Positions 40,306 through 57,000 of a DNA stretch of 63,551 bases are shown here, one piece after another. The position numbers and the translations under genes are program-made. How positions within the stretch are numbered: position 1 is the first letter of the stretch; each line of letters opens with the position of its first letter. The notes beneath the pieces are model-generated. The model was given only the letters and a program-made list of their open reading frames with translations, was not told the DNA's origin and made no database searches. Source of the DNA: an uncultured Bacilli bacterium (lineage in GTDB: Bacteria; Bacillota_I; Bacilli_A; RF39; UBA660); contig CALVKN010000002.1 in assembly GCA_944332715.1 (NCBI GenBank), positions 1 to 63,551 of the forward strand. Reading direction: 5' to 3'.

Positions 40306-40311
40306 TGAGGG

Positions 40312-41577
40312 ATGAATATGGCTAAGAAAAAAGAAGATAAAATCAAACAAAATACAAATAGAGAAACAATAGACTTAAAAGAGTTTATGCTTCTTGATGC
40401 CAAAAAACAAGATGAAAAAATTAAAGAAACTCTAGATTTAATATATGAAGGCAAGTTAGAAGTAACAAAAAAACATATAGAAAAAGTCTTAAATATTTGT
40501 TTTGATACCAAAGATAATGAAATCTATTTGCCAGGTAGTTTATGTGTTGAAAAAACCGGTAGTAAATTAACATTCTTCTTTAAAAAACGTAATAATGTTG
40601 GCCTTATTCTTTTATTCCTTTTAGCCTTTTTATTTGTTGCGGGCTTTGCCACTTATACTGGAGTTCAATATTTAGGAAGACTGCAAATGAATCAAGACTT
40701 AGATGGTGATGGTATAGCAGATTTAAACATTGACTTAGATGACGATGGTATCTGCGATATTAACTGTGATACTGACAAGGACGGCAAACCTGATCGAAAT
40801 ATAGATTATCATAATAATAGAAAACCAATATTTAATGTTTTAATGGATGATGATACACTTTTTAATCCTGTAAACCAAGATACTAATAATGATGGTAAAT
40901 GTGACATTAACTGTGATTCAAATGCCGATGGCTGGCCAGATTATAACATCGATTATGATGGTGATGGGGAAATTGATTTAGATAGAGACACCAATAATGA
41001 TGGCATTAAAGATTTGGATTTAGACTTTAATGGTGATGGTGTATGTGACCTTAACTGTGATGATGACAAAGATAATCTTTGTGATAGAAACTGTGCAACT
41101 ATAGATATTACTGGAAATGGTGGAGGAACTAGTCAAGAAGGTGATGGAGACTATGGATTATCTTCTGCAAACTTAATAGTAATATTTGAAAGTAGAAATA
41201 ATGTTGTAGCCGAAAATATCTATCCGGATGACCAAGAAGAGGGCGAAGGTATTAACACAACTGTTCCAGATTTAGTATTTACAGTTGAAAATACTACTAA
41301 TAGAACTCTAACTTATAATCTAGGATGGTTAATTAATAGTAATACTTTTGAAACTGATAACTTCTGGTATCGTGTTGTAAGTGATAATGGTGGACTTAAT
41401 CAATCTTGGACAACAGCACCATTTGAAACTACAGACTTTGCAACAAATGTTGAAATAGCACCAAATACTACTCAAACATACCGAATATCATTCACATTAC
41501 ATGGAACTGGTGAAGAACAAAATATCGATCAAGGAAAAGTTTTTGATGCTGAAGTAACTTTAGAATTAAATGAATAG
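40312..41577 (+). CDS. Single-pass membrane protein with thrombospondin-type-3-like Ca-binding Asp repeats and a beta-rich C-terminal domain
   Basis: About 95-aa cytoplasmic N-domain, TM (VGLILLFLLAFLFVAGFATY), then repeated DxDxDGxxDxNxD units (DLDGDGIADLNIDLDDDGICDINCDTDKDGKPDRNIDY ...), then a ~150-aa domain. Confidence 0.75.
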   Translation: MNMAKKKEDKIKQNTNRETIDLKEFMLLDAKKQDEKIKETLDLIYEGKLEVTKKHIEKVLNICFDTKDNEIYLPGSLCVEKTGSKLTFFFKKRNNVGLILLFLLAFLFVAGFATYTGVQYLGRLQMNQDLDGDGIADLNIDLDDDGICDINCDTDKDGKPDRNIDYHNNRKPIFNVLMDDDTLFNPVNQDTNNDGKCDINCDSNADGWPDYNIDYDGDGEIDLDRDTNNDGIKDLDLDFNGDGVCDLNCDDDKDNLCDRNCATIDITGNGGGTSQEGDGDYGLSSANLIVIFESRNNVVAENIYPDDQEEGEGINTTVPDLVFTVENTTNRTLTYNLGWLINSNTFETDNFWYRVVSDNGGLNQSWTTAPFETTDFATNVEIAPNTTQTYRISFTLHGTGEEQNIDQGKVFDAEVTLELNE

Positions 41578-41581
41578 GACG
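41568..41581. repeat. Left copy of direct repeat AAATGAATAGGACG flanking the IS
   Basis: Identical 14-mer at 43046-43059. Includes the stop codon of the 40312-41577 gene. Confidence 0.8.
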
Positions 41582-43045
41582 GGTTAATTGTCAAATAGTG
41601 TGTGTAGCACAAGATAATTACCATGAGAGGTAGCTTAAATAGCTACTTCTTTTTTAATGAAAAATAAACCTTTGCATATCATAATCCTAGCTTTAAATCT
41701 TCTAAAAGATCTAAAGCCAAAAGCAATTCGTTTAATGACTTTGATAAAGTTATTATTACCTTCAATAAAACCATTATTGAAATGAAATTTAAAAGAGTTT
41801 TTAATATAAGGTGAAAATTCTTTTAAAGTTTTAATTGAAGTAAGCATATAATCAGAAATATTAGTATATCTTTGATTGATGGTTTCATTAAATAAATCAA
41901 AATTATCGTTTTGAAAAGCATCAAGTAAATTTTGATAAACATTATAAGTACTTTTAAGTTCATCTGAAAGATTTAATAAATAGTTTAAAACATCAGATTC
42001 TGTAGTGAGATTAGGAAAGCAAGTAAAACGTTTCCACATAGAGTAATCGACATCATTTTTAGATTTTAAAAGTAATCTCCAATATCTTTTAAGTTTATTA
42101 TAATTGGCTTTGTCATATTTCATAAGCCTAATTCTAGTTTTATTTAAGGATCTGGAAACTAATTGGATTAAATGAAATTTATCAATTACAATAGAAGCAT
42201 TAGGAAACATCTTTTTAATTAAAGAAACATAAGGAGAATACATATCAATTGTAATAACTTTAACATTAGCTCTAGCTTTATGAGAATACCTAGAGAAATA
42301 TTTAATCAAACTATCTAATCTACGATCTTCAACAATATCAATAATCTTACCAGTTTTACCATTACATAAATGAAAACTCATGGCCCCATCCGCAGATTTA
42401 ACAGATTTAAATTCATCAAAAGATAAAATTTGAGGAAGATAAGTCTTATGAATCTTTTCTAAATCGTAGTAGGAATCCATAACTCTTTCAACAGTATTAG
42501 GAGAAACGTTATGATTAATAGCAATATCTTTCTCACTAATTTTAGAAGCCAAAGATTTAGCAATAGAATATTTAGTATTGTTAGAAATAAAACAACCATA
42601 ATTAACAATATTAGTTTTTAAAGTAAAGGCTTTATTACAATGCTTACAAAGATATCTTTGCTTATGAAGACGAAGAATTGTTTTATAACCAGATACATCT
42701 AAGACTTTAATATTAGAGGTAATAAAGCCATGCTTTTCAAATAATTCATCAAAAACAACACCACATCTAGGACAGGATTCTGGCTTGTATGAAAGATATC
42801 CTTCGAAAATCTTATGAATAATACCTTTGATTTTCTCTTCTTTGTAAAAATTTTCTTTAAAAAAGATATTATTGTCTTTTAATCCTAAGATATTTGTTAT
42901 ATAATTTAAATGGAACATGTTATCACTTCTTTCTTATATTTTGGATAATTATATTGTAACAGGAAATGGTAAACATGTTCCTTTTATTTTGTAAAAAAAC
43001 AAAAGTGTATGTAAACCACTTACACACACTAAATATTTTACAACC
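41582..43045 (-). mobile_element. ISL3-family insertion sequence
   Basis: 1464-bp element. Imperfect terminal inverted repeats GGTTAATTGTCAAATAGTGTGTGTA (41582-41606) and its partner at 43021-43045. Single transposase ORF. Flanked by a 14-bp direct repeat. Confidence 0.85.
41635..42918 (-). CDS. ISL3 family transposase
   Basis: 427 aa. N-terminal zinc finger (CPRCG...CKHC), SFDEFKS, ITIDMYSPY, VIDKFHLIQ DDE_Tnp_ISL3 landmarks. Confidence 0.92.
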   Translation of the reverse strand: MFHLNYITNILGLKDNNIFFKENFYKEEKIKGIIHKIFEGYLSYKPESCPRCGVVFDELFEKHGFITSNIKVLDVSGYKTILRLHKQRYLCKHCNKAFTLKTNIVNYGCFISNNTKYSIAKSLASKISEKDIAINHNVSPNTVERVMDSYYDLEKIHKTYLPQILSFDEFKSVKSADGAMSFHLCNGKTGKIIDIVEDRRLDSLIKYFSRYSHKARANVKVITIDMYSPYVSLIKKMFPNASIVIDKFHLIQLVSRSLNKTRIRLMKYDKANYNKLKRYWRLLLKSKNDVDYSMWKRFTCFPNLTTESDVLNYLLNLSDELKSTYNVYQNLLDAFQNDNFDLFNETINQRYTNISDYMLTSIKTLKEFSPYIKNSFKFHFNNGFIEGNNNFIKVIKRIAFGFRSFRRFKARIMICKGLFFIKKEVAI

Positions 43046-43059
43046 AAATGAATAGGACG
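43046..43059. repeat. Right copy of direct repeat AAATGAATAGGACG
   Basis: Identical to 41568-41581. Followed by the terminator hairpin aggac-gcaa-gtcct and a T-run (43054-43076). Confidence 0.8.
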
Positions 43060-43079
43060 CAAGTCCTTTTTCTTTTGGC

Positions 43080-43108
43080 TTGCAATGAGGAAAACATTTT
43101 GCTATAAT
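43080..43108 (+). promoter_or_regulatory. Consensus-like promoter of the peptide-maturation operon
   Basis: TTGCAA (43080-43085), 17-nt spacer, TATAAT (43103-43108). Confidence 0.65.
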
Positions 43109-43143
43109 ACTTAACAAGTAGTAGGTATATTGTAGAGGTTATC

Positions 43144-43257
43144 ATGAAAAAGGAAAAAAGCAAAAAGAAGGAAAATAAAATCTATATTAAAGAATTAAGG
43201 CCAGACATGACCCAATGCCGCATTATTGTTATTGATAAAAAGGAAAAAGTAAAATGA
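43144..43257 (+). CDS. Small Lys-rich ORF (37 aa), translationally coupled to the first radical SAM gene
   Basis: ATG 43144 behind AGAGG. Sequence MKKEKSKKKENKIYIKELRPDMTQCRIIVIDKKEKVK. Stop TGA overlaps the next ATG (ATGA at 43254-43257). Absent from the ORF track (under 60 aa). Confidence 0.4.
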   Translation: MKKEKSKKKENKIYIKELRPDMTQCRIIVIDKKEKVK

Positions 43258-44513
43258 AAACTTTTTTAGAGTCAACAAATGTTAATTCGTTTTATAATTT
43301 AAACACATTAACTTATCCGGTTATAGTATATTTGAAAATAACAGAATGTTGTAATTTATGCTGTAATTTTTGTTCTCAAGCATATGAGAAAAAGAATATT
43401 ATGGATATAAATTTAGCTAAAAAGATTTTGAGAGAATTGCACAATGGAGGAGTTGTATCTATTAATTATACTGGTGGAGAACCGCTCCTTTATCCTGATT
43501 TACAAGAACTTTTAAAGTATGGTTCAAGTTTAGGATTTGAACAAACATTAATTACAAATGGATTAAATATATTAAAGAATAAGAATATTTTGAAATATGT
43601 TAATTGTATTGGTATATCATTGCATGGAACTCCTGAAATACATAATCATCTTTGTAATTTGCCAAATGCCTTTGATAAAGTTAAAAGCAATATAGACAAA
43701 TTATTAAGTGATTATCCAAAAATTAAATTGAATTTAAATTGTACCTTAACAGAAGAAAATATTAACGAAGATTCCCTAAAATTTTTAAAAAATTTTGCTC
43801 AAGAAAGAAATATTAAACTATGCTTTGGCAGACTAAATTATTTAGGATTATCTTCTAACACAAAAATAATAAATCCAGATAAGTATTTAAAAATAATTGC
43901 TGAACTAAAAAAAGAGTATTTTAATATATCTATAAGTAATTGTATAGCGCATTGTACCCATCAGCAAGAATATAAGTATTTGAATCATGCTTGTGGAGCA
44001 GGCATATCAATCTTTAGCATTGAACCGAATGGCGATGTTAAAATATGCCCATCATCATCATATATTTTAGGAAATGTTTTAAATACAAAATTCAGTAAAA
44101 TAATAAAAAATAAAAAATTAGATAATTATAAGAAATTAAATTGGCTTCCTAATATATGCCGAATTTGTAAGGATTTTTCTTATTGTAAAGGGGGATGCCA
44201 CGCTGAAGGAAATTCACTATTTTATGAAAATACATGTGATACTTTAGTTATTGATAAGTTAAATAGCGTTTGGGAGAAAATAAAAAATAAAAAAATAATT
44301 TCTAAATGTAATAAATTACGTAAAGAGAAAAATAAATATTTAATAATTAAAATACCTATAAGGAAAATAGATAAATTAGGTTATAAAATTTTGCTTCAAT
44401 GTGATGGAACAAAAACAGGATCAGAAATTGCTGAAATATTTAGTAAAATAACTAATATAGAAGATTTTTTATCCACGTTATATCTTGATAACATAATAGG
44501 AGTACAAAAATGA
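43254..44513 (+). CDS. Radical SAM/SPASM peptide-maturase-type enzyme with C-terminal PqqD-like (RRE) segment
   Basis: CX3CX2C (CNLCCNFC), GGEPLL. SPASM-type Cys clusters (CGAGISIFSIEPNGDVKICP; CRICKDFSYCKGGCHAEG). C-terminal ..KILLQCDGTKTGSEIAEIF...FLSTLYLDNII resembles PqqD. Confidence 0.85.
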   Translation: MKTFLESTNVNSFYNLNTLTYPVIVYLKITECCNLCCNFCSQAYEKKNIMDINLAKKILRELHNGGVVSINYTGGEPLLYPDLQELLKYGSSLGFEQTLITNGLNILKNKNILKYVNCIGISLHGTPEIHNHLCNLPNAFDKVKSNIDKLLSDYPKIKLNLNCTLTEENINEDSLKFLKNFAQERNIKLCFGRLNYLGLSSNTKIINPDKYLKIIAELKKEYFNISISNCIAHCTHQQEYKYLNHACGAGISIFSIEPNGDVKICPSSSYILGNVLNTKFSKIIKNKKLDNYKKLNWLPNICRICKDFSYCKGGCHAEGNSLFYENTCDTLVIDKLNSVWEKIKNKKIISKCNKLRKEKNKYLIIKIPIRKIDKLGYKILLQCDGTKTGSEIAEIFSKITNIEDFLSTLYLDNIIGVQK

Positions 44514-45709
44514 AAAAAAGAGAAATTGCTAATGACAGATATATCATATATATTAACAATAAATACTATGTAGTAAATGAGTATACTTTAAAAATTATAA
44601 GTGCTTATTATGATAATAATAAAAATATAGAAAAAACCGCAAAAGGTCTAAATATAAGTGGATTTCACTTAAAAAGAATTTTAAATAAATTACAAAAAGA
44701 AATAAAGAATATTACTTATTATGAAGATAATGTAAACTTGAATTTTCCTCTTAAAATTCAATGGAAAATAACTAATAAATGCAATCTTTTATGTCTTCAT
44801 TGCTATTTGGGAGCATTGAATAATAAAGAGTTAAGCGAAGATAAATTATTTAAAATTACTGATAAAATAATTAATAGCAATGTTTTTGAAGTAACATTAA
44901 CTGGAGGAGAAGCATTATTAGTAAAATCATTACCATTAATTGTATCTAAATTGCTTAAAAATGATATCAAAGTAAATATTTTTACTAATGGTTTACTGCT
45001 ACCAGACTTTGAACGGAAGTTAGTTGATATTTTAGGGTATGCTCCAACAGAAAAATTAGACTTTTTTATTAGTTTAGATGGCTTAGAAAATAGTCATGAT
45101 AAGATTAGAGGTAAAGGTAATTTTAAAAAAACATTTAATAATATAAAGTTAATTACTCAAAAAGGATATCGTATTACTACTAATACAGTTTTAAATACAT
45201 CTAATTATTTGGATGTCCCTGATTTATATAAGTTATTATGGGAAACTGGTATTTATAAAATTCAAATATCTAATATGATTTCTTTAGGCCGAGCAACTTC
45301 TGATATGTTACTTTCTGAGAATCAACATGAAGAATTTTTAAAAAATTTTAAAAAAATATTAAGTGAGTTAGATCGAGGAGCTAAACTTCTGTATGCAGAT
45401 ATGCCCGATGAGGAATGCCAAAGTAAGGTATATTTATTATCAGGTAATAAAACAGAATATTTACAAAAAGAACATTGGAAATGTTCTGCTGGTATTGGTA
45501 AATGTACAATCGAATCAAATGGTGATGTTTATTGTTGCCCATTTATTAAAAATTACTGTTTAGGAAACATTAATGAAAAAGATATAGCACAAATTTGGGA
45601 TAATAAAAAAAGATATGAATTTTTGAAAATGATTGCTAAAGAAAATAATGATAGTAGAGTTTGTATTGCTGCTAAGTCTAATTATAAGGCGCGAAAGGAG
45701 GTGATTTAG
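44510..45709 (+). CDS. Radical SAM/SPASM-type enzyme with N-terminal RRE-like segment
   Basis: Overlaps the previous gene (ATGA). CNLLCLHCY (CX3CX2C), TGGEALL, CSAGIGKCTIESNGDVYCCPF auxiliary cluster motif. The N-terminal 70 aa look winged-helix/PqqD-like. Confidence 0.85.
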   Translation: MKKREIANDRYIIYINNKYYVVNEYTLKIISAYYDNNKNIEKTAKGLNISGFHLKRILNKLQKEIKNITYYEDNVNLNFPLKIQWKITNKCNLLCLHCYLGALNNKELSEDKLFKITDKIINSNVFEVTLTGGEALLVKSLPLIVSKLLKNDIKVNIFTNGLLLPDFERKLVDILGYAPTEKLDFFISLDGLENSHDKIRGKGNFKKTFNNIKLITQKGYRITTNTVLNTSNYLDVPDLYKLLWETGIYKIQISNMISLGRATSDMLLSENQHEEFLKNFKKILSELDRGAKLLYADMPDEECQSKVYLLSGNKTEYLQKEHWKCSAGIGKCTIESNGDVYCCPFIKNYCLGNINEKDIAQIWDNKKRYEFLKMIAKENNDSRVCIAAKSNYKARKEVI

Positions 45710-45835
45710 TTGAAAAAAATAATAAGTATCCTTAAAAGGGCTTTTGGTAAAAATAAAGTAATTGATTTATTTGAATCTAATAACGAAGCAACATTAGCTG
45801 AATTAGGTGGAAATTATTGCTCTGATTCATGCTAA
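45710..45835 (+). CDS. Candidate RiPP precursor peptide (41 aa, TTG start): leader ...ATLAELGG, core NYCSDSC
   Basis: Strong SD AAAGGAGGTGA (45694-45704) 6 nt before TTG 45710, which directly abuts the TAG of the preceding rSAM gene. Sequence MKKIISILKRAFGKNKVIDLFESNNEATLAELGGNYCSDSC*. Not in the ORF track (non-ATG start, under 60 aa). Confidence 0.65.
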   Translation: MKKIISILKRAFGKNKVIDLFESNNEATLAELGGNYCSDSC

Positions 45836-45851
45836 AAAGGAGGTAAGAAAT

Positions 45852-46838
45852 ATGGCTTCATCTTCTGTTTGGAAAGATAATACAATTTTGAGAAAATGGT
45901 TGAAAAAATATAGTTTAGATTTTTTGGATGGTAATTTTAATTATGATTTGACTGATTACTTATCTGATCCTTTACTAAATGCATTAGCCAAAAAATTAAA
46001 TATAGATAAAGAATATATTTATCTGGGAGCAGGAAGCAGTCAAATCATAACAAACATTTTAAATTTAAAAGTTTGGAATAAAATTTTTATTACTTCTCCA
46101 GAGTTTGGATTATATAATAGAAATCTAGAAAAGAACAGCATCAATCATGTCAAAATTGAATGCATAACAACTGTCGATTTTGTAAATAAATTAAGTTCTA
46201 TTAAAAGCACAGAGGAAGACCTTTTATGCTTATCATCACCTAGATGGTTTTCTGGTGAGAGGTTTTCTGATGAGCAGATTTATACCATTTTACAGGAATT
46301 TAAGGGAACTATTTTAGTTGATGAAGCCTATATTGCTTATTCTGATAATGAAAAAGGATTAATTGATTTAGCGATAAATAATGCTAGAATAATTCTTTTA
46401 AGAAGTTTTTCTAAAACATACTTTGCCTCAGGATTTAGAATTGGTTATATTATAACAACTAAAAAAATAGATGGCTTAAGAGATACTTTTATTGCTCCAC
46501 ATTCTATATCTACATGTTCAGCAAGATTTGCAACATCTTTAATTAATGATGATAAATTACAGAAAATTTTCAGTAATACAAGAAAACTAGTTAATAAAAA
46601 CCGTGATATTATTTATGATAATTTAAAAAATAATGGAAATTTTAATGTAATAAAATCAGAAGCAAATTTTATTACATTAATTTTTCAAAAACGTCAGGAA
46701 TTTAGCAAGTGTTATGAGTTACTTAAAGATCTACCGGGTATTCAAAAATTTGATAATAATATAACATTTATAAAAATTTGGATAAGCAATAAAGAATTTT
46801 CTTTAAAGATACTAAAAAGATTGGAACAGTTAAAATGA
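45852..46838 (+). CDS. Class I/II PLP-dependent aminotransferase (HisC-like)
   Basis: ATG 45852 behind AAGGAGG (the track GTG start overlaps the precursor). VDEAY, PLP-lysine motif SFSKTYFASGFRIGY. Confidence 0.85.
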   Translation: MASSSVWKDNTILRKWLKKYSLDFLDGNFNYDLTDYLSDPLLNALAKKLNIDKEYIYLGAGSSQIITNILNLKVWNKIFITSPEFGLYNRNLEKNSINHVKIECITTVDFVNKLSSIKSTEEDLLCLSSPRWFSGERFSDEQIYTILQEFKGTILVDEAYIAYSDNEKGLIDLAINNARIILLRSFSKTYFASGFRIGYIITTKKIDGLRDTFIAPHSISTCSARFATSLINDDKLQKIFSNTRKLVNKNRDIIYDNLKNNGNFNVIKSEANFITLIFQKRQEFSKCYELLKDLPGIQKFDNNITFIKIWISNKEFSLKILKRLEQLK

Positions 46839-48376
46839 TTTATTTGTATACACTTCCCGGTATAAATTTTAACTATCCTGATATAAAAAATATTTTATAT
46901 AGTACATATTTAAGACAAAATAAAATTAAATATAAATTTTTTGATTATACAGATTATCTATTAAATAATATTTTTATTAATAAAAATTTTAGTGAAGATA
47001 TTGATACCATAAAAGAAAATATTAAAAACAGTAATATGGATTTACTAAAGGCAAATAATAGTTTTATTAAAGCAATAAACAATTATTTAGATAAATTTGG
47101 TATTATTTATACTGGCCGAGGATTTAATTATAAATATCGTATAACTAATATTTCTGATTTTTTAAAAGTAGGTGAAAAAATTGAAGACTTCATTGATTTA
47201 TTTGTAATTGATCAATATAATGATGGTGACATTATATTTATGAATGTTTCCTATGGTTTTCAAGTCCCAATCGCAATAGCCCTATCTAAAAGAATAAAAA
47301 AATGTAATAATAATACCCGAATTATTTGGGGTGGAAATTATATAACGCAAATAAATGAAAATTGTAATGAACTAATAAATAAAGTAAAATACTTAGATGC
47401 AATTATAATATTTGATTATATTAAAACTTTCAAGGACTTGATTGCATATTATCAAGAAAGAAAATTAGAATTAATAAATGTCATAAGAAAAAATCAACCA
47501 TTTATTATAAGAAATAATTTAGTTGATGATAAAAATTATTATTATTTGGATTATTCTGATATAGATTTAAGTCATTATTTATCAAGGGATAGAATATTGC
47601 CAGTATTTTTGACTTACGGATGTTATTATCATAAATGTAATTTTTGTTCTCACCATTATCATTTCGGTGGTTACCTATCTATAAATCGGAAAAAGATGTA
47701 TGAAAATATTTTTAAAATGTATAAAAAAAATTCATTTGATAGTATAATCCTTATTGATGAATGTGTTCCTCCGAATATTTTATTGGAGTTTGCTGAGTTT
47801 TTACTAAATAAAAAAATCCATACTAAGTGGATGGTGGAAACTAGAATTAAAGAAGAGTATTTGGATAAAAGAAATGTTTTTAAACTTGCTGATAGTGGAT
47901 GTAAATTTATATCTTTTGGGATAGAAAGTTATAACAAAAGAATTTTGAGGTTAATGAATAAGGGAATAGATATAAAAAGCATTAAAAAAGTATTACGCAA
48001 TTTTTTTAATAGTAATATAATAGTGTCTTCGACATTTATGATTGGATATCCTAAAGAAAATATTTTTAATATATATAAAACCTTAAATTTTATAAAGAAA
48101 TTTAAATATATTGATGTTTTTGGTTTAAATATCTTTGTATTATCGCGAAATTCTATTCTATATAATGAATTAGGTTTTAAGAGTAATAATATTAATCTCA
48201 TTTATAGGTTTAAAAATAGTCGAAGAAATAAGATAGAAAAAATATTAAATACATTTAATAATAATAGCAAAATAAAAAAACTTAATAATATAAAAAATAA
48301 TTTGCTAAATAGATGTGATTATTTCTATTTAGAAAGAAAAAATTTTAGTTTAAATTATAAAGAGGTGATAAAATGA
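46835..48376 (+). CDS. B12-binding-domain-type (class B-like) radical SAM enzyme with atypical CX4CX2C cluster spacing
   Basis: 513 aa. About 250-aa N-terminal Rossmann-like region before GCYYHKCNFCSHH. Later FGIESYN. Overlaps neighbours by 4 nt on both sides. Confidence 0.7.
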   Translation: MIYLYTLPGINFNYPDIKNILYSTYLRQNKIKYKFFDYTDYLLNNIFINKNFSEDIDTIKENIKNSNMDLLKANNSFIKAINNYLDKFGIIYTGRGFNYKYRITNISDFLKVGEKIEDFIDLFVIDQYNDGDIIFMNVSYGFQVPIAIALSKRIKKCNNNTRIIWGGNYITQINENCNELINKVKYLDAIIIFDYIKTFKDLIAYYQERKLELINVIRKNQPFIIRNNLVDDKNYYYLDYSDIDLSHYLSRDRILPVFLTYGCYYHKCNFCSHHYHFGGYLSINRKKMYENIFKMYKKNSFDSIILIDECVPPNILLEFAEFLLNKKIHTKWMVETRIKEEYLDKRNVFKLADSGCKFISFGIESYNKRILRLMNKGIDIKSIKKVLRNFFNSNIIVSSTFMIGYPKENIFNIYKTLNFIKKFKYIDVFGLNIFVLSRNSILYNELGFKSNNINLIYRFKNSRRNKIEKILNTFNNNSKIKKLNNIKNNLLNRCDYFYLERKNFSLNYKEVIK

Positions 48377-50118
48377 GTATATCAATTAAAGAATTTAGAG
48401 ATTTTAAAACTAATTATTGTGATACTTTTTTTCCTAGTGATGTAACGATTTGGTCAAGTATAGTCTTATTAGAATGTATGGATAACCCGGACTTAATGGC
48501 TGAAGTAAAAGAGTATTTAACAATTAAGGAAGATATTAGTGCAAATGAACTTAATGATTTAATGCAAAAGTTAAGAGATAAAACTAATGAATATATAAAT
48601 ATGATGAATCATGCTGCAACTAAAGATGAAGCATATGAGATTTTTAGAATGTCTTTAGTATATTATGGTATTTTAGAATCCCTTGATGAACTGGCTAGTT
48701 TTTCAGCGAATTTAATTAGTCAAATAAAAGATAAATACAAAGATAATTACTTAGAGGTAATTGCTAATTTTGATAAAGGTAATTTATCTGTTGATGGTAG
48801 TAAAGTTTTAGAAAATATGGCATTACCCAAAGAATATAATGCTGATGAATTACTAAAAAAATATAGAGTGCTAAAAATATGGCAAGATAAACAACATGGT
48901 TATTATCAAACTGTTATTGAACCAATATTACATAAGATGGCAGAGTATTATGAAAATATGTATTCTAATTCTTTAGATGTTCATTTTGAAAGTCCTGTCA
49001 TGTATCTGAAGTTTTACCAATTATGTCAAAAAGATTTAATTTCAATTGATGAATTATCAAAACTTTATTTATGTGGTATAGATAAAGAATTAATTAAGCT
49101 AGTAGGAGGAAAAGGGTATGGTTTAACTGTTTTAAATGCCAAAGGAATAGAAATTCCTAAAACTTATGTAATACCTTGTTTTGCATCTTCTTGTGATATT
49201 CACGGGTTGGCAGAGTTAAGCAGTAATATTCATTATTCAGTGAGGAGTTCTGCTGATATTGAAGATGGTCAAAAAAATTCTTTTGCAGGTTTATTTGATT
49301 CCTATTTGGATGTTGATTATAAATCACTAAATGAATATATAGCTAAAGTTATTGCTTCAAAAGATAATAGTAGAGTACAAGAATACATTACTCATAATAA
49401 TTTAACTCAACCAAATATGGCTGTATTATTACAACCATTTCAAGAACCAACATTCGCTGGAGTATGGATAGGAAAGGATAGTAATAGTGGCTATTTAGAA
49501 TATGTCGAAGGTAATGGAGAAAAATTAGTTTCTGGAAAAGTTACACCGAAAATGGAGTCTTGGGATAACCATACAAATACTACTGATAAATTGAAATGCC
49601 AAAATGGTTTTGTAGGAGAAAAATTAATAGAATATCAAAAACTTCTTTCTGATAGCAATCCTGCTGACTTTGAATGGATGATTTTAAATGATAAGTTAGT
49701 TTTATTACAGTATCGTCCTGTTACAACAAAATTAGAAATACCAAAAGATATTAATTTAGAAGAAAAAGGTGTTTATAAAGGTATTGCAGCATCTCCAGGA
49801 TTTACTTCTGGACCAGCTAGGTTTATTAATGCTAGATACATTGATAAAGTTGATGACTGGAAAGATGGCGACATTTTAATGTCTTGGTATACTGATCCTG
49901 AATGGATGAACATTTTATCTCATTCTAGTGGAATTGTGACTGCTGTTGGAGGATTTTTATGTCATGCTGCAATTATAGCAAGGGAATTAGGAATACCATG
50001 TGTGATAGGTATCGGCGGAGATGCTATGAAAAAAATATGGAATGAAAAAGAACTGACTGTTGATGGAACTAATGGTTTAGTTAAAACTACCTTGACTAGG
50101 AAAAGAAATAGTAGATAG
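48373..50118 (+). CDS. PEP-utilising-enzyme family protein (PPDK_N ATP-grasp plus swivelling His domain, no PEP/pyruvate TIM barrel)
   Basis: About 230-aa unknown N-terminal region. GGKGYGLTVLNAKGIEIPKTYVIP (PPDK_N). C-terminal GGFLCHAAIIARELGIPCVIG (mobile His domain). Confidence 0.8.
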   Translation: MSISIKEFRDFKTNYCDTFFPSDVTIWSSIVLLECMDNPDLMAEVKEYLTIKEDISANELNDLMQKLRDKTNEYINMMNHAATKDEAYEIFRMSLVYYGILESLDELASFSANLISQIKDKYKDNYLEVIANFDKGNLSVDGSKVLENMALPKEYNADELLKKYRVLKIWQDKQHGYYQTVIEPILHKMAEYYENMYSNSLDVHFESPVMYLKFYQLCQKDLISIDELSKLYLCGIDKELIKLVGGKGYGLTVLNAKGIEIPKTYVIPCFASSCDIHGLAELSSNIHYSVRSSADIEDGQKNSFAGLFDSYLDVDYKSLNEYIAKVIASKDNSRVQEYITHNNLTQPNMAVLLQPFQEPTFAGVWIGKDSNSGYLEYVEGNGEKLVSGKVTPKMESWDNHTNTTDKLKCQNGFVGEKLIEYQKLLSDSNPADFEWMILNDKLVLLQYRPVTTKLEIPKDINLEEKGVYKGIAASPGFTSGPARFINARYIDKVDDWKDGDILMSWYTDPEWMNILSHSSGIVTAVGGFLCHAAIIARELGIPCVIGIGGDAMKKIWNEKELTVDGTNGLVKTTLTRKRNSR

Positions 50119-50121
50119 AAA

Positions 50122-51735
50122 TTATTTGTTCAAAAATAATTTCTCTTTTTCTTTTAATGTATTGTTTAACTTTTTCCAATTTTTATATTTGCAGTTTGCT
50201 TTGAGTTTGCATAACTTACAATTAGGACATTTAGGAATTATTAGTTTTAAATCTTTAATAATGAAGGAAAATTTATCTTGACAGTTAATACTATTTAAGT
50301 AATTTATTAATTTTTTATTGCTAAGGGTATTTAAGTCTGGTTTTTCATTAATTTTGTATTTAATTAAAACATATAATAATTCAAAAGTTATATTGTTGTA
50401 ATTTGTTTTAATAAAATTATATGAATGGAAGAATATACCTAATTTAATAAATGAATATCTAAAACTTTTTATCATATCTTCAATAATTAGACAAGCGCGT
50501 TTTAATTCGTCCTTATTATTTACAGTGTCTAAATTAAAATAAATGCTCTTCAAAAATTCAAATTCTTTTATTACAGAAGCTTCTTTATTATCTATTGTAA
50601 TAATATTAGACAAATTGGGAATAAATACTTTATAAGTATGAAATTTTAAGAATGAATAATCTTTAATATAAATACTTAAATTGTTTTTAGTAATTATGTT
50701 TATGAGTTCTTTATAAACATCTTTATTATTATCTAAATTTTTAAATGCTTTTAATTCATTATAATTTATTAATACATTAGAATTAAATATTATTGTAGGG
50801 TGTATGCCGTTATTAGTAGAATAATTATTTAACCAATTAACTTTTCTTTCATCTATAGTTAATTTATCATAGTTATTATTAATATCTTTCATTTTATTAA
50901 TTAAAGCATTTATATCTTTAAGGCCTTGAAATATTTCTGTTAGGCACCTTTGAATTGCTATGTCTATATTTAAATCACTTCCAACAGTCATGATATATTT
51001 GCTATTATCTTTATTAGTAATTATTACTCCAACTACTGGATAGATACCTAAAGAAAAGTCTTTAATATAAACATTTAAGTTATATTTTTTTATATTTTCA
51101 ATCTTATAGTAAGAATCTAATTTATTATCAATGATAATTGTATTTAATATTATTTCATTATTAACTATTGTTTGATAACAATATCTTTCAAATATTTCAC
51201 ATATGCCTTGATTTACTGCTTCAAAATAACTATTGCCTGCACATAAACCATTAGAGTAAGTTGTAGCATTAATTAATTTAATAGGTAGATAAACATACTT
51301 ATTGTTTTTTAAATCATAATACTTAGAAATTAAATTATATTTCGAATTATTATTAAAAAAAATATTTTTATTTACATTATTTTCAAAAAAGGTATTAATA
51401 ATATTTTGATTTTTTTGTATTATTTTGGGTTCTACTATTTCATCAGTATTGATAAAACTATTTTCTTTAGATAAATAATATATAGGAATTAATAATCTAG
51501 ATTGTAAACGCTCCATTAATTCGGCATAAGCAGATGCTTTGGCTAAATCTTTAGATATTCCCTTCCCATTAGTTCCTAAATTATAAAATCCTTTAATTTC
51601 TATTCTTATGGAATATAACTCTTTATTAATGCTTTTAAATTTATATTCTTTTACTTTTATATTATTCTGTTTTAATATTTTTTTTATTATTTCGATAGTA
51701 AGTTGGGGTTTACATTCTTTTCTAATATTATTCAT
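50122..51735 (-). CDS. YcaO-family ATP-dependent peptide backbone-modifying enzyme
   Basis: NGKGISKDLAKASAYAELMERL and later ICEIFERY, LTEIFQG segments typical of YcaO. ATG 51735 (MNNIRKE) preferred over GTG 51747. The stop lies 3 nt from the stop of the convergent PEP-utilising gene. Confidence 0.8.
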   Translation of the reverse strand: MNNIRKECKPQLTIEIIKKILKQNNIKVKEYKFKSINKELYSIRIEIKGFYNLGTNGKGISKDLAKASAYAELMERLQSRLLIPIYYLSKENSFINTDEIVEPKIIQKNQNIINTFFENNVNKNIFFNNNSKYNLISKYYDLKNNKYVYLPIKLINATTYSNGLCAGNSYFEAVNQGICEIFERYCYQTIVNNEIILNTIIIDNKLDSYYKIENIKKYNLNVYIKDFSLGIYPVVGVIITNKDNSKYIMTVGSDLNIDIAIQRCLTEIFQGLKDINALINKMKDINNNYDKLTIDERKVNWLNNYSTNNGIHPTIIFNSNVLINYNELKAFKNLDNNKDVYKELINIITKNNLSIYIKDYSFLKFHTYKVFIPNLSNIITIDNKEASVIKEFEFLKSIYFNLDTVNNKDELKRACLIIEDMIKSFRYSFIKLGIFFHSYNFIKTNYNNITFELLYVLIKYKINEKPDLNTLSNKKLINYLNSINCQDKFSFIIKDLKLIIPKCPNCKLCKLKANCKYKNWKKLNNTLKEKEKLFLNK

Positions 51736-51756
51736 AAATATCACCAAATTTCCTTT

Positions 51757-51785
51757 ATACTACCATTTCCTATAAATGGTGTCAA
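51757..51785 (-). promoter_or_regulatory. Promoter of the YcaO gene
   Basis: Minus strand: TTGACA (51785-51780), 17-nt spacer, TGgTAGTAT (-10 at 51762-51757). Confidence 0.5.
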
Positions 51786-51849: not shown

Positions 51850-53382
51850 ATGAATATCGATAAGGCAAGCCTAGGTACTAGATACTTAATTAATTATATA
51901 AATAGTAAAAATCCTGCTCATTTAGATGTTGTAAGAAACTGCACTAAAGATATAGCATTCTGGGCAATGCTTATGCATTTTTGCAATAATATGAATGATT
52001 TATTTGATGCTTTATCAGAACCTATTTTAGAGCGAATATTTACGCAAAAAAAGGTTGTAAAAGTTGTAGATATTTTAAGTGATGCAACTGAAGAATACAC
52101 TTATGGCTTAGGTTATACTTCTAATACTAAGGGTAAATACAAAAATCACATAAGGAATATTAGAAATGCTTTAGCCCATGGAACATTTGAATTTGATGGA
52201 ACCCAAATACATATTTCTACACCTAACTCTTATGTGGCAACATTTGATTATGAATGGTTTAAATCCCTAGTCTTATCGACATTATCCAATGAAAATTTTC
52301 AAATAAAAAGAGGTATCGAAGATTATTCTATAATCAAGTTAACTGAAGGTACTGATAAAAATTATAAAACAAGTGATATAAAAAATTTAGAACAACTCGG
52401 TTTAATAAAATTAATTAAATTAACTTGTAAGGCAACTGATGCAACAGTAATATCAACAAAGTTTCCAGGATTAGCCAAAAAGGAAGGTAAAATTACCTTT
52501 GATGATTTAAAAATAATATTTATTAGATTATTATCGGAATTATCTAGCAAAGTAGGTTTTACAAAGACTTTAGAAAAATTAAAAAGAGCATATAAAGGTA
52601 TAATTGATATTGAAGCATTAGATATTAAAAGCGATGCCTTAAATGATCCTGAATTTCTAAATCTACCACTAGAATCAGGCATAGATTATTTAGTAAACGA
52701 AATAAGTAGTAAAGATAAAAATACTAAAAGTACAATTAATTTAAAAAGAATATTAAATTTACTTGATAAATTAAATGAAGATGCACCATTAACACCTTCA
52801 GAAGAATATGCTCTAAAAGATACCTTAGAGTTTTTACTTAATTTATATGGCTATATCTATTTTAATCAATTTCCTTCCAAAAAAAGAGATGATGATTCCT
52901 TAGCCCCATTTGATGAAAAAATAGAATTTAAAATAGTTCATGCCAAAAACGTATGGGGAGAATATATTAAAAAAATCAGTAAATCAATTGACTGTTTAAT
53001 TGCTGCTAATGCTAGTGAAAAAAGAATTGATATGTGGAAAGAACGTCTTAGAATATATAAATTAAGACTAGAAAAAATGCTTGAAGATGATAATAATATA
53101 TTGCGTTTGCTAAGAAATTCTATAACTCATGGATTAGTTGAACATAGTGATAACTTAATCGTTTTTTATGGTGAAGAACCCACTCTTACTTTACCTAAAA
53201 TTAATTCTAAAACTAAAGAATTAACAGAATATACTTTTCAAAATAAAGGAAGAACTTTTGAAATTGATATGGATAAAGATACATATTTGTCTTTACTTGA
53301 TAGCTTATATGAAGCAAGTGGTATCGAAATAAAAGTAAATATATCTAAATACCGTAAAAGAAAAAATTATTTAAGTAATTAA
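51850..53382 (+). CDS. Hypothetical 510-aa protein with two Rx4H (HEPN-like) motifs
   Basis: ATG 51850 behind GGGGG. Motif 1 IRNIRNALAHGTFEFDG (R-x4-H at 52162-52179). Motif 2 LRLLRNSITHGLVEHSD (53113-53130). No TM or signal peptide. Confidence 0.6.
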   Translation: MNIDKASLGTRYLINYINSKNPAHLDVVRNCTKDIAFWAMLMHFCNNMNDLFDALSEPILERIFTQKKVVKVVDILSDATEEYTYGLGYTSNTKGKYKNHIRNIRNALAHGTFEFDGTQIHISTPNSYVATFDYEWFKSLVLSTLSNENFQIKRGIEDYSIIKLTEGTDKNYKTSDIKNLEQLGLIKLIKLTCKATDATVISTKFPGLAKKEGKITFDDLKIIFIRLLSELSSKVGFTKTLEKLKRAYKGIIDIEALDIKSDALNDPEFLNLPLESGIDYLVNEISSKDKNTKSTINLKRILNLLDKLNEDAPLTPSEEYALKDTLEFLLNLYGYIYFNQFPSKKRDDDSLAPFDEKIEFKIVHAKNVWGEYIKKISKSIDCLIAANASEKRIDMWKERLRIYKLRLEKMLEDDNNILRLLRNSITHGLVEHSDNLIVFYGEEPTLTLPKINSKTKELTEYTFQNKGRTFEIDMDKDTYLSLLDSLYEASGIEIKVNISKYRKRKNYLSN

Positions 53383-53963: not shown

Positions 53964-54027
53964 AAAACTTTTACACTAGCCCACATAAATTATTAATGGA
54001 GCTAGTTTTTATTTGTGCTGATTTTTG

Positions 54028-54056
54028 TTGAAAATTGTCAAATATTGTGGTATATT
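54028..54056 (+). promoter_or_regulatory. Promoter of the giant surface-protein gene
   Basis: TTGAAA, 17-nt spacer, TGgTATATT. Confidence 0.5.
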
Positions 54057-54081
54057 AGAGTCAGCTAGAAAGGGAGGAAAT

Positions 54082-57000
54082 ATGGATAAGAGAAAAGGTA
54101 TAATTTTAGCTATTGTACTATTTTTGATCATTGGACTTGGAACATTCGTGTTTGCAGGTGGCAGTGAAGATGAAGGATCAGGAAATGGTACAATTACTCC
54201 ACAACCTAATGGTGGAGATAATAATGATCCTGTTAATCCAGATTCTGAAGAAGAAACTGGAAATAATGAAGAAGGAGGAAACCAAGGCGGAAGTCAAAGT
54301 AGACCAGCTGGTGGAAATGATGGTTCTGACGGAGAAGAATTAGTAACTGATGGCGAAGGTGAAGAACAAAATCCGGAAGAAACAGTTGATTATAAAGCAT
54401 TACTTTCTAAACTAGAAGAAATGGTTAATTCAGCAACTAATAAAGACGATTTAGCCAAAGCAGAAGAATTTAGACAAGATAATAATATAACTGAAACTAA
54501 TATTGATGCTTTAGGTAATGCTGAAGACAGCAAAACATTCGATGAAATAATGGCTATTTTAACCGATGAAACTGCACCAGTAGTAACACCTGACAATTTA
54601 AATAATCTCTTTACTAAAGATGATGTTAAAGTTACTATCACAGATGATACTGAAACTTCTTATACAGTAACATTAAATGGTAAAGAAGTAGAAGATGCCG
54701 ATTTAAGTAATTTAAGTGCTGAAGGAACATATACTTTAACTGTTGTTGATGCCGCATTTAATGAAACAGTTGTAACATTCACAATTGATAAAACTGCTCC
54801 AACTATTTCAGGAGTAGATGTAGAATATAATAATAAATCTGAAATAGTAAAGATAAGTGATACAAATTTATCAAGTGTTACAATTAATGGTGTAGAACAA
54901 GAATTGACTGGAACTACATTTGAAAAGAAATTCCCAAGCGATGGAACATATACAATTGTAGTAAAAGACAAAGCTGGAAATGAAAACTCAGTAACATTTA
55001 CAATTGATAAAACTGCTCCAACTATTTCGGGAGTAGATGTAGAATATAATAATAAATCTGAAATAGTAAAAATAAGTGATACAAATTTATCAAGTGTTAC
55101 AATTAATGGTGTAGAACAAGAATTGACTGGAACTACATTTGAAAAGAAATTCCCAAGCGATGGAACATATACAATTGTAGTAAAAGACAAAGCTGGAAAT
55201 GAAAACTCAGTAACATTTACAATTGATAAAACTAATCCATTATTAGTTATAAATGGTGAAGTTATCGAAGAAACTGATGAAACATTATATTTTACTGAAG
55301 ATATAAAAGTAACTGTTGAAGAAGCAAATTTAGAAACATTTACTTCAAATACACATGATAGAACTAAAGAAGTTTTAGAAGAATGGAATGTTTCTGAAGG
55401 TGGTTATACATTTGTCATAACTGATAAAGCAGGTAATAAGACAACTTATAAAGTAGTTGTTGATAAAACTCCAATTCCTGTAAATCATTTATATGTAAAA
55501 AATAATAGCCATGAAGATTACAATGTAAGTGAAGAAAATCGCTATAAAGTAATTGGTAATGGTCAAGAATTATATGTTGAATATGTTCTAAAAGAAGAAT
55601 TTACTTCTACTCCAATACTTACTATTGGTGGTAAAGAATATGAAATGACTTGTGATGTTGCAAGTTGGAATGATGAACTTTACAAATGTGATGCTCATGT
55701 AACTATTAGTGAAGATATGAATCTTGTTAATGGTGAAGTAATTCCATTTACTATAACAGGTGTTAAAGATATCGCTGGTAATGAAACAGTTGTTACAGAA
55801 AAAGATACAACTGTAAGTGATAAATATGGAAAAGTTGTATATGACAATGATCCAGCACAATCTATTTGGGTATACATTTTAAATGCTGATGAAGATCACA
55901 GAACAATTATTGGTAATAATCAAAAGTTAATCGTTGAAATAAATGTTAATGAAGAATTACTTGTAAATCCAGTAATTACTATCGGAGATTATCAAGTAGA
56001 ATTAACTCGTAGAGCTAATGATTCTCGTTATATTTATTCAAAAACTATTACAATTGATGCTGATGAAATGAAATTAGTTCATGATGAGAATATAGCATTT
56101 ACTATTTCAGTTACTGATGTTGCAGGTAAAACTACAACTCTTGATAATAAAAATGTTACAATTCATGAAGAAAAAGGTTATGGTCAAGTTAAATACGATG
56201 GAGAAGCTCCTGAATATGTATCACTAGGTATGCAAAACAATGACCATACATCTAGTCATGAAAATGGTGATATTACGGTTGCTAATATTGGTGATCATAT
56301 AAGAATATTAATTCGTTTTGATGAATTATTAGCTATAACTCCAAAAATTAGAATTGGAGATTCTGAAGAATTTGAATTAAAGTTACATACTGATTATGAA
56401 AACTTTGAAAAGTATACATATTGGGCAGATATTGAATTAACTAAAGATATGAATTTAGCTGATGGTGCCTTAGAATATGTTATTTATGGTTATGCTGATG
56501 CTTTCGGTAATGTTGGTAAGAATTTATCATCAACTGATGAAGTAAATCCAATAAATAATCCATCTTTACCAGGAGTTACATTAGATACAGAAGTGGAAAA
56601 TCCTGAATGGATTTATACTTTAAATTTATCAGATAAAAACAATCGTAAAACTATTAAAGATGGGCAAACATTAAGAGTTGAAGCTAATTTTACTGAAGAA
56701 TTAGTTACAACTCCAGTACTTACAATTGGTGATTCACAAAGCGTAGCTTTTAGAAAATGCGAAGAAACTAGTTTTGGTAAGTATGTTTGTGTAGCTGATA
56801 TTGTAATTGATAATAGTATAGCAAATTTAGAAAATAATAAAGTAATTCCAATTAAAATAACAAATATTGAAGATAAAGGTGGAAATACTTTAGAATTAGA
56901 TAACTCATATATTACAGAAACAACAGAATATGGAGAAGTTACATATGATAATGAAGCTCCTGTATATACTTCATTAGGATTAGTAAATATGACTCATTTT

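Follow-up and report, generated by a model that had tools for sequence, protein, structure and literature searches.

A candidate RiPP-type maturation cluster of an undescribed class with two conserved small peptides in uncultured gut bacteria

Several described pathways to peptides that are made on the ribosome and modified after translation (RiPPs) resemble, each in some respect, the gene cluster reported here, which lies at positions 43080–51785 of a stretch of DNA from an uncultured Bacilli bacterium (RF39; UBA660). The whole stretch analyzed, hereafter the window, comprises positions 1–63,551 of the forward strand of contig CALVKN010000002.1 (assembly GCA_944332715.1). Among the related systems, thuricin CD is a two-peptide sactibiotic with two radical S-adenosylmethionine (SAM) enzymes in one operon, and its clusters include ABC transporters; its peptides contain multiple cysteines and are not known to have YcaO, dikinase or aminotransferase partners. 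The maturase QhpD links Cys to Asp. The products of the mycofactocin and pyrroloquinoline quinone (PQQ) pathways are excised, and mycofactocin undergoes a late interconversion of amine and ketone (MftD). SbtM oxidizes the C-beta of the cysteine in an internal Gly-Cys motif, giving a thiooxazole (PMC9204691). In daptides, the peptide C-terminus is oxidized and decarboxylated, transaminated by a pyridoxal phosphate (PLP) enzyme and methylated, and a divergent YcaO protein (DapY) acts on the installed amine (PMC12670281). According to the part of PMC10352776 that cites Park 2018, MbnN of the methanobactins is a repurposed HisC-family aminotransferase that acts on a ribosomal peptide product. Finally, E. 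coli YcaO thioamidates a backbone amide (in uL16) without TfuA (PMC13063428).

To characterize the cluster we compared 31 loci, 24 of them from a scan of one genome per species, using a tblastn table and an all-against-all clustering of the neighboring open reading frames (ORFs). Eight genes were co-conserved: those for two small peptides, two radical SAM enzymes of the peptide-maturase type (rSAM1 and rSAM2), a radical SAM enzyme of the B12-binding type, an aminotransferase, a dikinase-like phosphotransferase and a YcaO protein. The genes for rSAM1, rSAM2 and the dikinase-like enzyme were present in 31 loci each, those for the B12-type enzyme and the aminotransferase in 27 each, and the YcaO gene in 26. 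The absences coincide with contig ends, with the exception of locus L032. At least three gene orders occur among these loci, which we term type A. The YcaO gene comes first in L006, and the L008-type order is methyltransferase, aminotransferase, B12-type enzyme, small ORF (sORF), rSAM1, rSAM2, dikinase-like enzyme, peptide, YcaO; throughout the type A loci the sORF, rSAM1 and rSAM2 form a contiguous block. That the genes occur together in 31 loci, and do so in changing order, indicates that the cluster is more than a chance assembly. We consider it likely, with some reserve, that these genes form a self-contained RiPP-type maturation cluster of an undescribed class with two substrate-like peptides.

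In the window, genes were called from the ORF list and the raw sequence. Seven genes are packed head-to-tail on the plus strand, from 43144 to 50118, and the YcaO gene converges on them from the minus strand. Overlaps of 4 nt and of the ATGA type occur at 43254, 44510, 46835 and 48373, the gene of one peptide abuts rSAM2 at 45710, and 3 nt separate the stop codons of the dikinase-like (+) and YcaO (−) genes. This arrangement had been reported in a preliminary description, which was made from the letters of the DNA, and both the ORF list and the sequence confirm it. The promoter-like TTGCAA-17-TATAAT of that description is also present, and the site is identical in L001, a sister strain free of the insertion sequence (IS) that adjoins the cluster in the window. 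Promoter-like sites are not enriched in this stretch of 24% G+C (85 found versus 80 ± 9.5 in shuffles), so the motif alone is weak evidence. One gene boundary was revised: the aminotransferase had been thought to start inside the peptide gene, at a GTG, while its most likely start is the ATG at 45852, which stands behind its own AAGGAGG. Rfam and tRNA scans of the window gave no matches.

The first of the two small peptides, hereafter the precursor, is encoded by a gene with a TTG start 6 nt past AAGGAGGTG; the gene ends ...LAELGGNYCSDSC, and the peptide reads MKKIISILKRAFGKNKVIDLFESNNEATLAELGGNYCSDSC. A precursor-type peptide of about 40 aa is encoded in 30/30 loci whose contig reaches that position, in agreement with the earlier proposal that a short peptide gene belongs to the enzyme set, and the gene travels with the cluster through changes of gene order. 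The tails of the 30 peptides are variants of three forms: GGNYCSD[S/C/T/V]C, GNGNCSD[C/A]C and GHG[N/D]CSDQC. Counted from the C-terminus, G(-9), C(-5), S(-4), D(-3) and C(-1) never vary, and position -2 is free, which gives the pattern G-x3-C-S-D-x-C. The core had previously been described as seven residues long; the conserved block has nine. The ELGG that precedes the core is confined to the clade of the window, and the larger clade has SMSMAG in its place, so the 7-residue core, like any double-glycine cleavage, is a guess. Twenty-one distinct DNA versions of the precursor gene were found, with two to three synonymous codons at each invariant residue; therefore, selection acts on the protein. 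A chance ORF was considered and rejected for the precursor, given its conservation in 30 loci with synonymous codon turnover. No Pfam or NCBIfam model matches either small peptide.

The second small peptide is encoded by the sORF. In each type A locus whose contig extends far enough, this ORF stands immediately upstream of rSAM1. Its motif is [I/F][Y/F][I/L][K/R]E[L/V][R/K]P[D/E]MTQCR[I/V][I/V]x[I/V][D/E], in which T-Q-C-R is invariant; up to five synonymous codons are used for the T-Q-C-R residues across type A loci. Both small peptides are under purifying selection. If instead the cluster made a non-ribosomal small molecule from free metabolites, then the two ORFs would be regulatory leader peptides or chance ORFs. 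Aminotransferases of the HisC/CobD type and dikinases resembling phosphoenolpyruvate (PEP) synthase do normally take small phosphorylated metabolites. However, the protein sequences of both ORFs are conserved while their synonymous codons turn over, the precursor moves with the cluster through its rearrangements, YcaO enzymes act on peptide backbones, and rSAM2 has a peptide-maturase fold with a domain like the RiPP recognition element (RRE); we regard this explanation as highly improbable.

A profile search with the T-Q-C-R peptide returned 104 cluster representatives, all of 33–68 aa and none with a Pfam match or an informative name. The most divergent members (e.g. MEQKIFIKEIREEVTQCRIIQIDKK..., found in 376 blocks of the sequence collection) belong to a second cluster, type B, which we located in L050–L054. 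Type B clusters contain genes for a small methyltransferase, the T-Q-C-R peptide, a radical SAM enzyme of 386–390 aa, a P-loop-containing unknown protein of 714–726 aa, an NAD_binding_8 oxidase-like protein, a GT2 glycosyltransferase and a second methyltransferase. Along its entire length, the RRE included, the type B radical SAM enzyme shares 40% identity with rSAM2, but only 26% with rSAM1. The T-Q-C-R peptide and the rSAM2 orthologue are all that type A and type B have in common. No C-S-D-x-C peptide occurs in the type B loci, where tight gene packing leaves no space for another small ORF. Since the T-Q-C-R peptide pairs there with the rSAM2 orthologue alone, the two appear from this comparison to be an independent, reusable and unnamed peptide-maturase module. 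The T-Q-C-R peptide is thus probably a second substrate. The simplest and most likely reading of the gene associations is that it is the substrate of rSAM2, which leaves the C-S-D-x-C peptide to rSAM1 and the other enzymes.

Two other explanations bear on this assignment. In the first, the sORF product assists the rSAM2-type enzyme as a small accessory subunit or chaperone, perhaps as a beta-hairpin by which a surface for peptide binding is completed, and the C-S-D-x-C peptide is the sole precursor. In line with this, the stop of the sORF is translationally coupled to the downstream radical SAM gene in both cluster types, the conserved residues lie mid-peptide between variable tails rich in Lys and Glu, and in three loci the sORF forms an in-frame C-terminal continuation of the B12-type enzyme. 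Against it, the sORF is the sole small ORF in type B, so an RRE-bearing radical SAM enzyme would lack a visible substrate, and the invariant cysteine of T-Q-C-R suits the cysteine-directed chemistry of SkfB-like enzymes. We consider a subunit possible, though rather less likely than a substrate. As for the three loci themselves (L008, at 8580–8780; L027; L033), the ORF of the B12-type enzyme has no stop there and runs on into the sORF, giving 589–590 aa; an RBS-like (ribosome-binding-site-like) AGAGGAGA and an ATG are still present 5' of the small-ORF part.

The second explanation holds that two independent pathways stand side by side, one of the T-Q-C-R peptide and rSAM2, the other of the C-S-D-x-C peptide with rSAM1, YcaO, the dikinase-like enzyme, the aminotransferase and the B12-type enzyme, each with its own product. 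The pair of sORF and rSAM2-type gene does occur alone among entirely different neighbors, and the accessory domains of rSAM1 and rSAM2 differ. Yet the two modules are never apart in 31/31 type A loci, rSAM1 sits between the sORF and rSAM2, and we found no C-S-D-x-C cluster without the sORF and rSAM2, the sole scan aimed at such clusters being uninformative. That scan, of metagenomes with the rSAM1 alignment for C-S-D-x-C-only clusters, used generic patterns, to which only unrelated radical SAM enzymes of at most 36% identity responded, and is uninformative either way. Two separate pathways therefore strike us as somewhat doubtful, and we retain a single cluster with two substrate-like peptides as the preferred reading.

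The two maturase-type enzymes differ in architecture. For rSAM1, Pfam matched Radical_SAM (8e-16) and SPASM (3e-7), and the best NCBIfam models were MftC (82.9 bits, cut-off 265) and PqqE (81.4 bits, cut-off 381); the PapB model gave 53.9 bits against a cut-off of 340. By sequence, its closest solved structures are SkfB and PqqE (1e-10 to 1e-9). In 23 sequences, C33/C37/C40, C230, C234, C247, C265, C302, C305, C311 and C315 are invariant, and the last four form the full SPASM pattern CX2CX5CX3C (C302-x2-C305-x5-C311-x3-C315). For rSAM2, Radical_SAM and SPASM were both matched in Pfam, and the best NCBIfam models were TIGR04133 (107 bits, cut-off 425) and SkfB (91.6 bits, cut-off 300); StsB gave 79.8/625 bits and AlbA 66.9/850 bits. 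Its closest PDB sequence is SkfB (1e-25). The conserved cysteines are C91/C95/C98 together with C325, C342, C343 and C385, so the auxiliary domain holds four cysteines only and is twitch-like, as in SkfB. Two SPASM enzymes had been predicted for the locus: the Pfam matches bear this out for both proteins, and the cysteine pattern supports a full SPASM domain in rSAM1 but not in rSAM2.

Fifty homologues went into an AlphaFold2 (AF2) model of rSAM2 (predicted local distance difference test, pLDDT, 84.8), which places three strands and then three helices in residues 2–67, the arrangement of an RRE-type winged helix. When the full-length model was searched with Foldseek, SkfB came first (3e-18), followed by SuiB and CteB, all of them RRE-bearing peptide maturases. 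The model thus supports an RRE-like fold in rSAM2. The preliminary description had spoken of two RRE-like segments, and one in rSAM1 found no sequence support: the C-terminal extension of this enzyme aligned to the rSAM2 RRE with an hhalign probability of 0.1, a profile of the extension retrieved nothing meaningful among PDB sequences, and the PqqD model of Pfam matched neither the rSAM2 N-terminus nor the rSAM1 C-terminus at E<=10.

The remaining four enzymes also match broad families, and no enzyme of the cluster attains the cut-off of any named NCBIfam family. In the 513-aa protein, Pfam Radical_SAM was matched at 1e-14. Its best NCBIfam models, PhpK, the RiPP C-methyltransferase TIGR03975, BchE and ApyD (1e-18 to 1e-8), are all under cut-off; the rest of its NCBIfam matches are mostly to B12-binding radical SAM families, with alignments extending into the N-terminal region. 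The closest solved structure by sequence is AprD4 (6e-5), and the Pfam B12-binding model PF02310 gave only a weak match (E=0.06). The proposal of a B12-type radical SAM enzyme is therefore upheld for the radical SAM part, with indirect support for the B12-binding domain. Its cluster motif is CX4CX2C instead of the canonical CX3CX2C, and C263/C268/C271 are invariant in 25 orthologues. The aminotransferase matches Aminotran_1_2 (PF00155, 5e-26), NCBIfam hisC (133 bits, cut-off 277) and HisC in the PDB (6e-12); the PLP lysine, which lies in SFSK, does not vary across 22 sequences.

The dikinase-like enzyme matches PPDK_N (1e-25) and PEP-utilizers (2e-21) in Pfam and the PEP synthase model of NCBIfam (162.6 bits, cut-off 598), with all NCBIfam scores several times under the cut-offs. 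Among PDB sequences, those of PEP synthase and of rifampin phosphotransferase are closest, at about 1e-24 to 1e-26. The AF2 model (pLDDT 86.3) divides it into an all-helical domain (1–256), an ATP-grasp domain (about 257–455) and a swivelling phosphohistidine domain (465–575, with His531). With this model, Foldseek found pyruvate phosphate dikinase (PPDK, 3e-14) and rifampin phosphotransferase (3e-13). Neither Pfam nor the model contains a PEP/pyruvate TIM barrel, and the protein ends after the His domain. His531 and the motif RSSADIEDG are conserved in 53 homologues. The helical domain had 62 matches among 1.84 billion representative proteins; the full-length ones (about 500–640 aa) bear it N-terminally, and the others are short fragments. 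To judge by these matches the domain is family-specific, and by analogy with the helical rifampin-binding domain of rifampin phosphotransferase it is plausibly substrate-binding. The YcaO protein matches Pfam YcaO over the full profile (7e-41), has E. coli YcaO as its closest solved structure (4e-21), and reaches 146 bits with YcaO_for_S12 in NCBIfam (cut-off 700). Its acidic and arginine residues E76, E79, R80, E184, E187 and R188 are invariant in 22 sequences. TfuA, an E1-like partner and a dehydrogenase were found neither in the window cluster (Pfam) nor among the recurrent neighbors of the 31 loci. The earlier calls of a PLP aminotransferase, a swivelling-His phosphotransferase and a YcaO protein are thus backed by searches with hidden Markov models (HMMs) and structures. 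The catalytic motifs of all cluster enzymes are intact.

These assignments suggest a pathway. First, rSAM1 and rSAM2 would dock the peptide leaders, rSAM2 through its RRE-like domain, and carry out radical chemistry at the invariant cysteines. They could form thioethers, as do SkfB, CteB, PapB and QhpD, or oxidize a C-beta, as do anSME and SbtM. In this scheme, rSAM2 would act on the T-Q-C-R peptide, and rSAM1 together with the other enzymes on the G-x3-C-S-D-x-C tail. YcaO, with ATP, may activate a backbone amide of the core, yielding a thioamide or an azoline/amidine. The dikinase-like enzyme would pass the beta-phosphate of ATP via His531 to a hydroxyl or an enol, as in rifampin phosphotransferase. 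The best candidate acceptor is the invariant serine, where the phosphoryl group might be a leaving group for dehydration or remain as a phospho-ester. A C-terminal S-x-x-C is the classical pattern of lanthionine and aminovinyl-cysteine (AviCys) rings. The B12-type enzyme probably would C-methylate. The aminotransferase could exchange a carbonyl and an amine made during the pathway, or work at a new terminus, with MbnN and DapD as precedents, both of which take termini that arise in the course of maturation; use of a transaminated amine by YcaO is not general here, because L032 keeps YcaO without the aminotransferase. The product is probably an unknown sulfur-rich peptide-derived molecule.

The distribution of the cluster bears on what such a product might be for. 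Exact-sequence look-ups found the locus in three other assemblies of the source species, one of them without the IS element. Homologues of rSAM2 number in the hundreds (42–67% identity), all in metagenome-assembled genomes (MAGs), and the few named ones are labelled Bacilli or Clostridiales; for one cluster orthologue, the sequence collection lists 368 blocks. All 31 loci belong to uncultured gut bacteria, most of which carry the label Bacilli, and for the 24 loci the gut was that of humans (Hadza among them), rabbit, sheep or other animals; lineage labels of relatives are those of the MAG records. In most genomes the G+C content of the cluster matches that of its flanks, which argues for long residence. 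L032 (8592–18015), from a MAG labelled Lachnospiraceae, lacks the aminotransferase and the B12-type enzyme, and its cluster has 32% G+C with flanks of 42%, which suggests transfer. Its neighbors include a UbiE-like methyltransferase, a 255-aa unknown protein and a glutamate-racemase-like protein. In L034 (CP091726.1, a complete 1.46-Mb 'Bacilli bacterium' chromosome, at about 6000–14700), the cluster genes give only short broken matches and both small ORFs are start-less, owing either to assembly frameshift errors or to a decaying cluster.

Two further genes recur beside the cluster. An S51 (PepE-like) peptidase gene is found in 12 loci and is confined to one clade, and a TehB-like SAM methyltransferase gene is found in 10 and adjoins the aminotransferase gene in one clade. 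No transporter, immunity gene or C39 protease is recurrent across the 31 loci. The absence of leader protease, exporter and immunity genes, reported earlier for the locus, thus extends to the 31 loci, the S51 peptidase of one clade apart. At the same time, the core is invariant although the enzymes diverge to about 35–40% identity. Because of this invariant core, and because no recurrent genes for an exporter, immunity or a dedicated leader protease were found, we favor a fixed-structure small molecule for the producer's own use, such as a cofactor, a metal or redox ligand or a physiological signal, over a classical bacteriocin, and judge the chances of this about even. The earlier view of the product as something other than a typical bacteriocin receives indirect support, since transporter, immunity and C39 genes do not recur and the core, like those of PqqA and MftA, does not vary.

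The main alternative to a product for own use is a secreted antimicrobial or quorum signal, comparable to sactipeptides, ranthipeptides and streptococcal radical-SAM peptides, that is exported and trimmed by unlinked machinery. The ELGG before the core in one clade resembles double-glycine leaders, the closest structural relatives of rSAM2, SkfB and SuiB, act in maturing a killing factor that is secreted and a peptide regulated by a signal, and the S51 peptidase adjoins 12 loci. However, none of the 31 loci has an ABC/C39 transporter or an immunity gene, the GG motif is absent from the larger clade, and the core is invariant rather than diversifying. We therefore think secretion unlikely. A more specific form of the own-use proposal is of similarly low probability: that the cluster makes a new peptide-derived cofactor or ligand needed by a whole small-genome lineage of uncultured gut Bacilli, by way of a step new to ribosomal peptides, the transfer of a phosphoryl group by a PPDK-like swivelling-His enzyme that has a peptide-binding domain to itself, with the two peptides co-processed and possibly joined.

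Several points weigh against a two-substrate RiPP-type pathway. Modification of either peptide by the cluster enzymes is a prediction, and the assignment of enzymes to peptides comes solely from the type B association. An RRE in rSAM1 was not demonstrable with Pfam, hhalign or PDB profile searches, and cobalamin binding is proposed from weak family similarity (PF02310, E=0.06). Some version of the product can do without the aminotransferase and B12-type steps, as L032 lacks both enzymes. The T-Q-C-R peptide, Lys-rich at both tails, conserved at its center and translationally coupled, fits a small subunit equally well, and the absence of an exporter is negative evidence only. If the preferred reading holds, then the cluster represents a new RiPP class from never-cultured bacteria that are common in human and animal guts, and its dikinase-like enzyme adds a new ATP-dependent activation to peptide natural-product chemistry. 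The unvarying core and the missing export genes would also make the product a candidate peptide-derived cofactor, few of which are known (PQQ, mycofactocin).

The cluster and its surroundings are listed in Table 1. Upstream, an ISL3-family IS, flanked by the direct repeat AAATGAATAGGAC and with terminal inverted repeats that are imperfect, is inserted in the terminator hairpin of the upstream gene, just past the stop codon; the site is empty in L001. The element is a recent strain-specific insertion that is incidental to the cluster. Mobilization of the cluster by it was considered and rejected, as it is present in a single copy and the site is empty in the sister strain. The preliminary description had placed the cluster in an accessory island beside an ISL3 element. 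The element does adjoin it; the island is weakly supported, as the insertion is strain-specific and the G+C content mostly tracks the host.

Farther upstream, a block of four genes (36630–41577) is a probable defence island. The gene at 37707–39212 matches the PADLOC candidate PDC-M26A (3e-40) and, weakly, LmuB; that at 39220–40305 encodes a DUF2357 protein; and the product of that at 40312–41577 is a repeat protein, rich in Asp, that has a hydrophobic segment. At 31394–36497 lie the genes of two Fn3-containing paralogues, each about 845 aa long. On the other side, a gene for a 510-aa protein (51850–53382) stands beside the YcaO gene; the protein has weak HEPN-like matches only (RTasHEPN 4e-4), is conserved only within the same species and lies outside the conserved cluster. 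A signal peptidase I gene and, at 54025–58356, a gene for a predicted surface protein of 1443 aa also lie downstream; the latter gene contains 2.1 copies of a 219-bp unit, which are 98% identical (54772–55233).

Table 1. Features of the cluster and its immediate surroundings, in window coordinates, and location of the type B cluster in its own loci
Feature	Position	Strand	Product or description	Remarks
ISL3-family IS	~41581–43040; transposase 41635–42918	−		DDE_Tnp_ISL3 Pfam 1e-53
Terminator-like hairpin	43054–43067		5' of the promoter-like site	
Promoter-like site	43080–43108	+	TTGCAA-17-TATAAT with TG extension	Sequence and scan; putative function, from position only
sORF (T-Q-C-R peptide)	43144–43257	+	37 aa, MKKEKSKKKENKIYIKELRPDMTQCRIIVIDKKEKVK	Stop overlaps rSAM1 start
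rSAM1	43254–44513	+	419 aa; radical SAM, full SPASM, conserved C-terminal extension of ~100 aa	
rSAM2	44510–45709	+	399 aa; RRE-like N-terminal domain, radical SAM core, 4-Cys twitch-like auxiliary domain	
Precursor peptide	45710–45835	+	41 aa; C-terminus GGNYCSDSC	TTG start, strong RBS
Aminotransferase	45852–46838	+	328 aa; PLP-dependent class I/II, HisC/CobD type	
B12-type radical SAM enzyme	46835–48376	+	513 aa; class B (B12-binding type)	B12 binding putative, from weak family similarity
Dikinase-like phosphotransferase	48373–50118	+	581 aa	
YcaO	50122–51747	−	541 aa; stand-alone	
Promoter-like site	51757–51785	−	TTGACA-17-TAGTAT with TG, upstream of the YcaO gene	Scan; consensus match only
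Type B cluster	L050 9392–15667; L052 1341–8697; also L051, L053, L054			

Finally, we compared the cluster with the described systems. In rSAM2, as in SkfB, CteB, PapB and SuiB, the radical SAM domain has an RRE-like domain on its N-terminal side and an auxiliary Fe-S domain on its C-terminal side, and the enzyme stands beside short Cys-containing peptides. In contrast to the sactipeptide and ranthipeptide systems, the maturases here score far under the SkfB, AlbA, StsB and PapB cut-offs, YcaO, the dikinase-like enzyme, the aminotransferase and the B12-type radical SAM enzyme are additional, and a thioether between Cys sulfur and an alpha, beta or gamma carbon, as in those products, may be formed by the invariant cysteines of both peptides. 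With mycofactocin and PQQ the cluster shares a short peptide with an invariant C-terminal core, a radical SAM/SPASM maturase and the lack of an exporter. An invariant core without genes for export, immunity or a leader protease brings it closer to PQQ, mycofactocin and SCIFF-type peptides, which are widespread, than to bacteriocins. It differs from mycofactocin in that there is no GVY core, MftC is matched at 82.9 versus 265 bits, and MftB, MftD, MftE and MftF are not recurrent in the 31 loci; and from PQQ in that there is no E-x3-Y core, PqqE is matched at 81.4 versus 381 bits, and PqqB, PqqC and PqqD are missing. Unlike in either pathway, the chemistry of the core would be based on Cys, Ser and Asp.

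The logic of an aminotransferase combined with YcaO recalls the daptides, as does the SAM methyltransferase beside the aminotransferase in one clade. The differences are a C-terminal Cys rather than Thr, an aminotransferase of PF00155 rather than of class III (PF00202), no homologues of DapB or DapC, a one-clade methyltransferase that scores 38.6 bits against a cut-off of 175, and radical SAM enzymes in place of the NAD-dependent step. The likeness to MbnN is at the level of the HisC family; methanobactin loci differ from the cluster, which lacks MbnB and MbnC (MNIO), in core and in host lineage. With rifampin phosphotransferase, PEP synthase and PPDK, the dikinase-like enzyme shares the ATP-grasp and swivelling phosphohistidine domains with their conserved His motif. 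It is further like rifampin phosphotransferase in having an extra helical domain and no PEP/pyruvate barrel, whereas the helical domain comes first here; in PEP synthase and PPDK, by contrast, the PEP/pyruvate TIM barrel forms a third module. No dikinase of this type in a RiPP pathway is described in the literature searched. Like E. coli YcaO, the YcaO protein is stand-alone, without TfuA, an E1-like partner or a dehydrogenase. It differs in its score (146 versus 700 bits) and in that its gene lies within a peptide-maturation cluster, so its substrate is presumably a small peptide and not a ribosomal protein.

Membership in the named YcaO and lanthipeptide classes was also considered. For the azol(in)e RiPPs (TOMM/LAP and thiopeptides), TIGR03604 gave 66.3 bits versus a cut-off of 219, and neither an E1-like/Ocin-ThiF partner nor an FMN dehydrogenase was recurrent. 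TfuA, which marks the YcaO-TfuA class, was found neither in the window locus nor among the recurrent neighbors, and TfuA-independent thioamidation is possible. No LanB, LanM, LanKC or LanL domains were found in the proteins of the locus or its recurrent neighbors. Curated models and full-text literature searches yielded neither the peptide sequences nor the enzyme combination, in keeping with the first impression that the locus matches no named RiPP class. The general features of a RiPP pathway are nevertheless present: a conserved short precursor gene beside maturases, and an RRE-like domain in at least one maturase, as modelled for rSAM2. The enzyme combination is without a described counterpart, and the PPDK-like dikinase and the T-Q-C-R/rSAM2 module are without described precedent in such pathways. 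Because score cut-offs, core sequence or partner genes fail for each named class tested, we read the cluster, from its sequence, as a RiPP-type pathway of a new class, nearest in its short invariant core and lack of an exporter to PQQ and mycofactocin and in its second maturase to SkfB.

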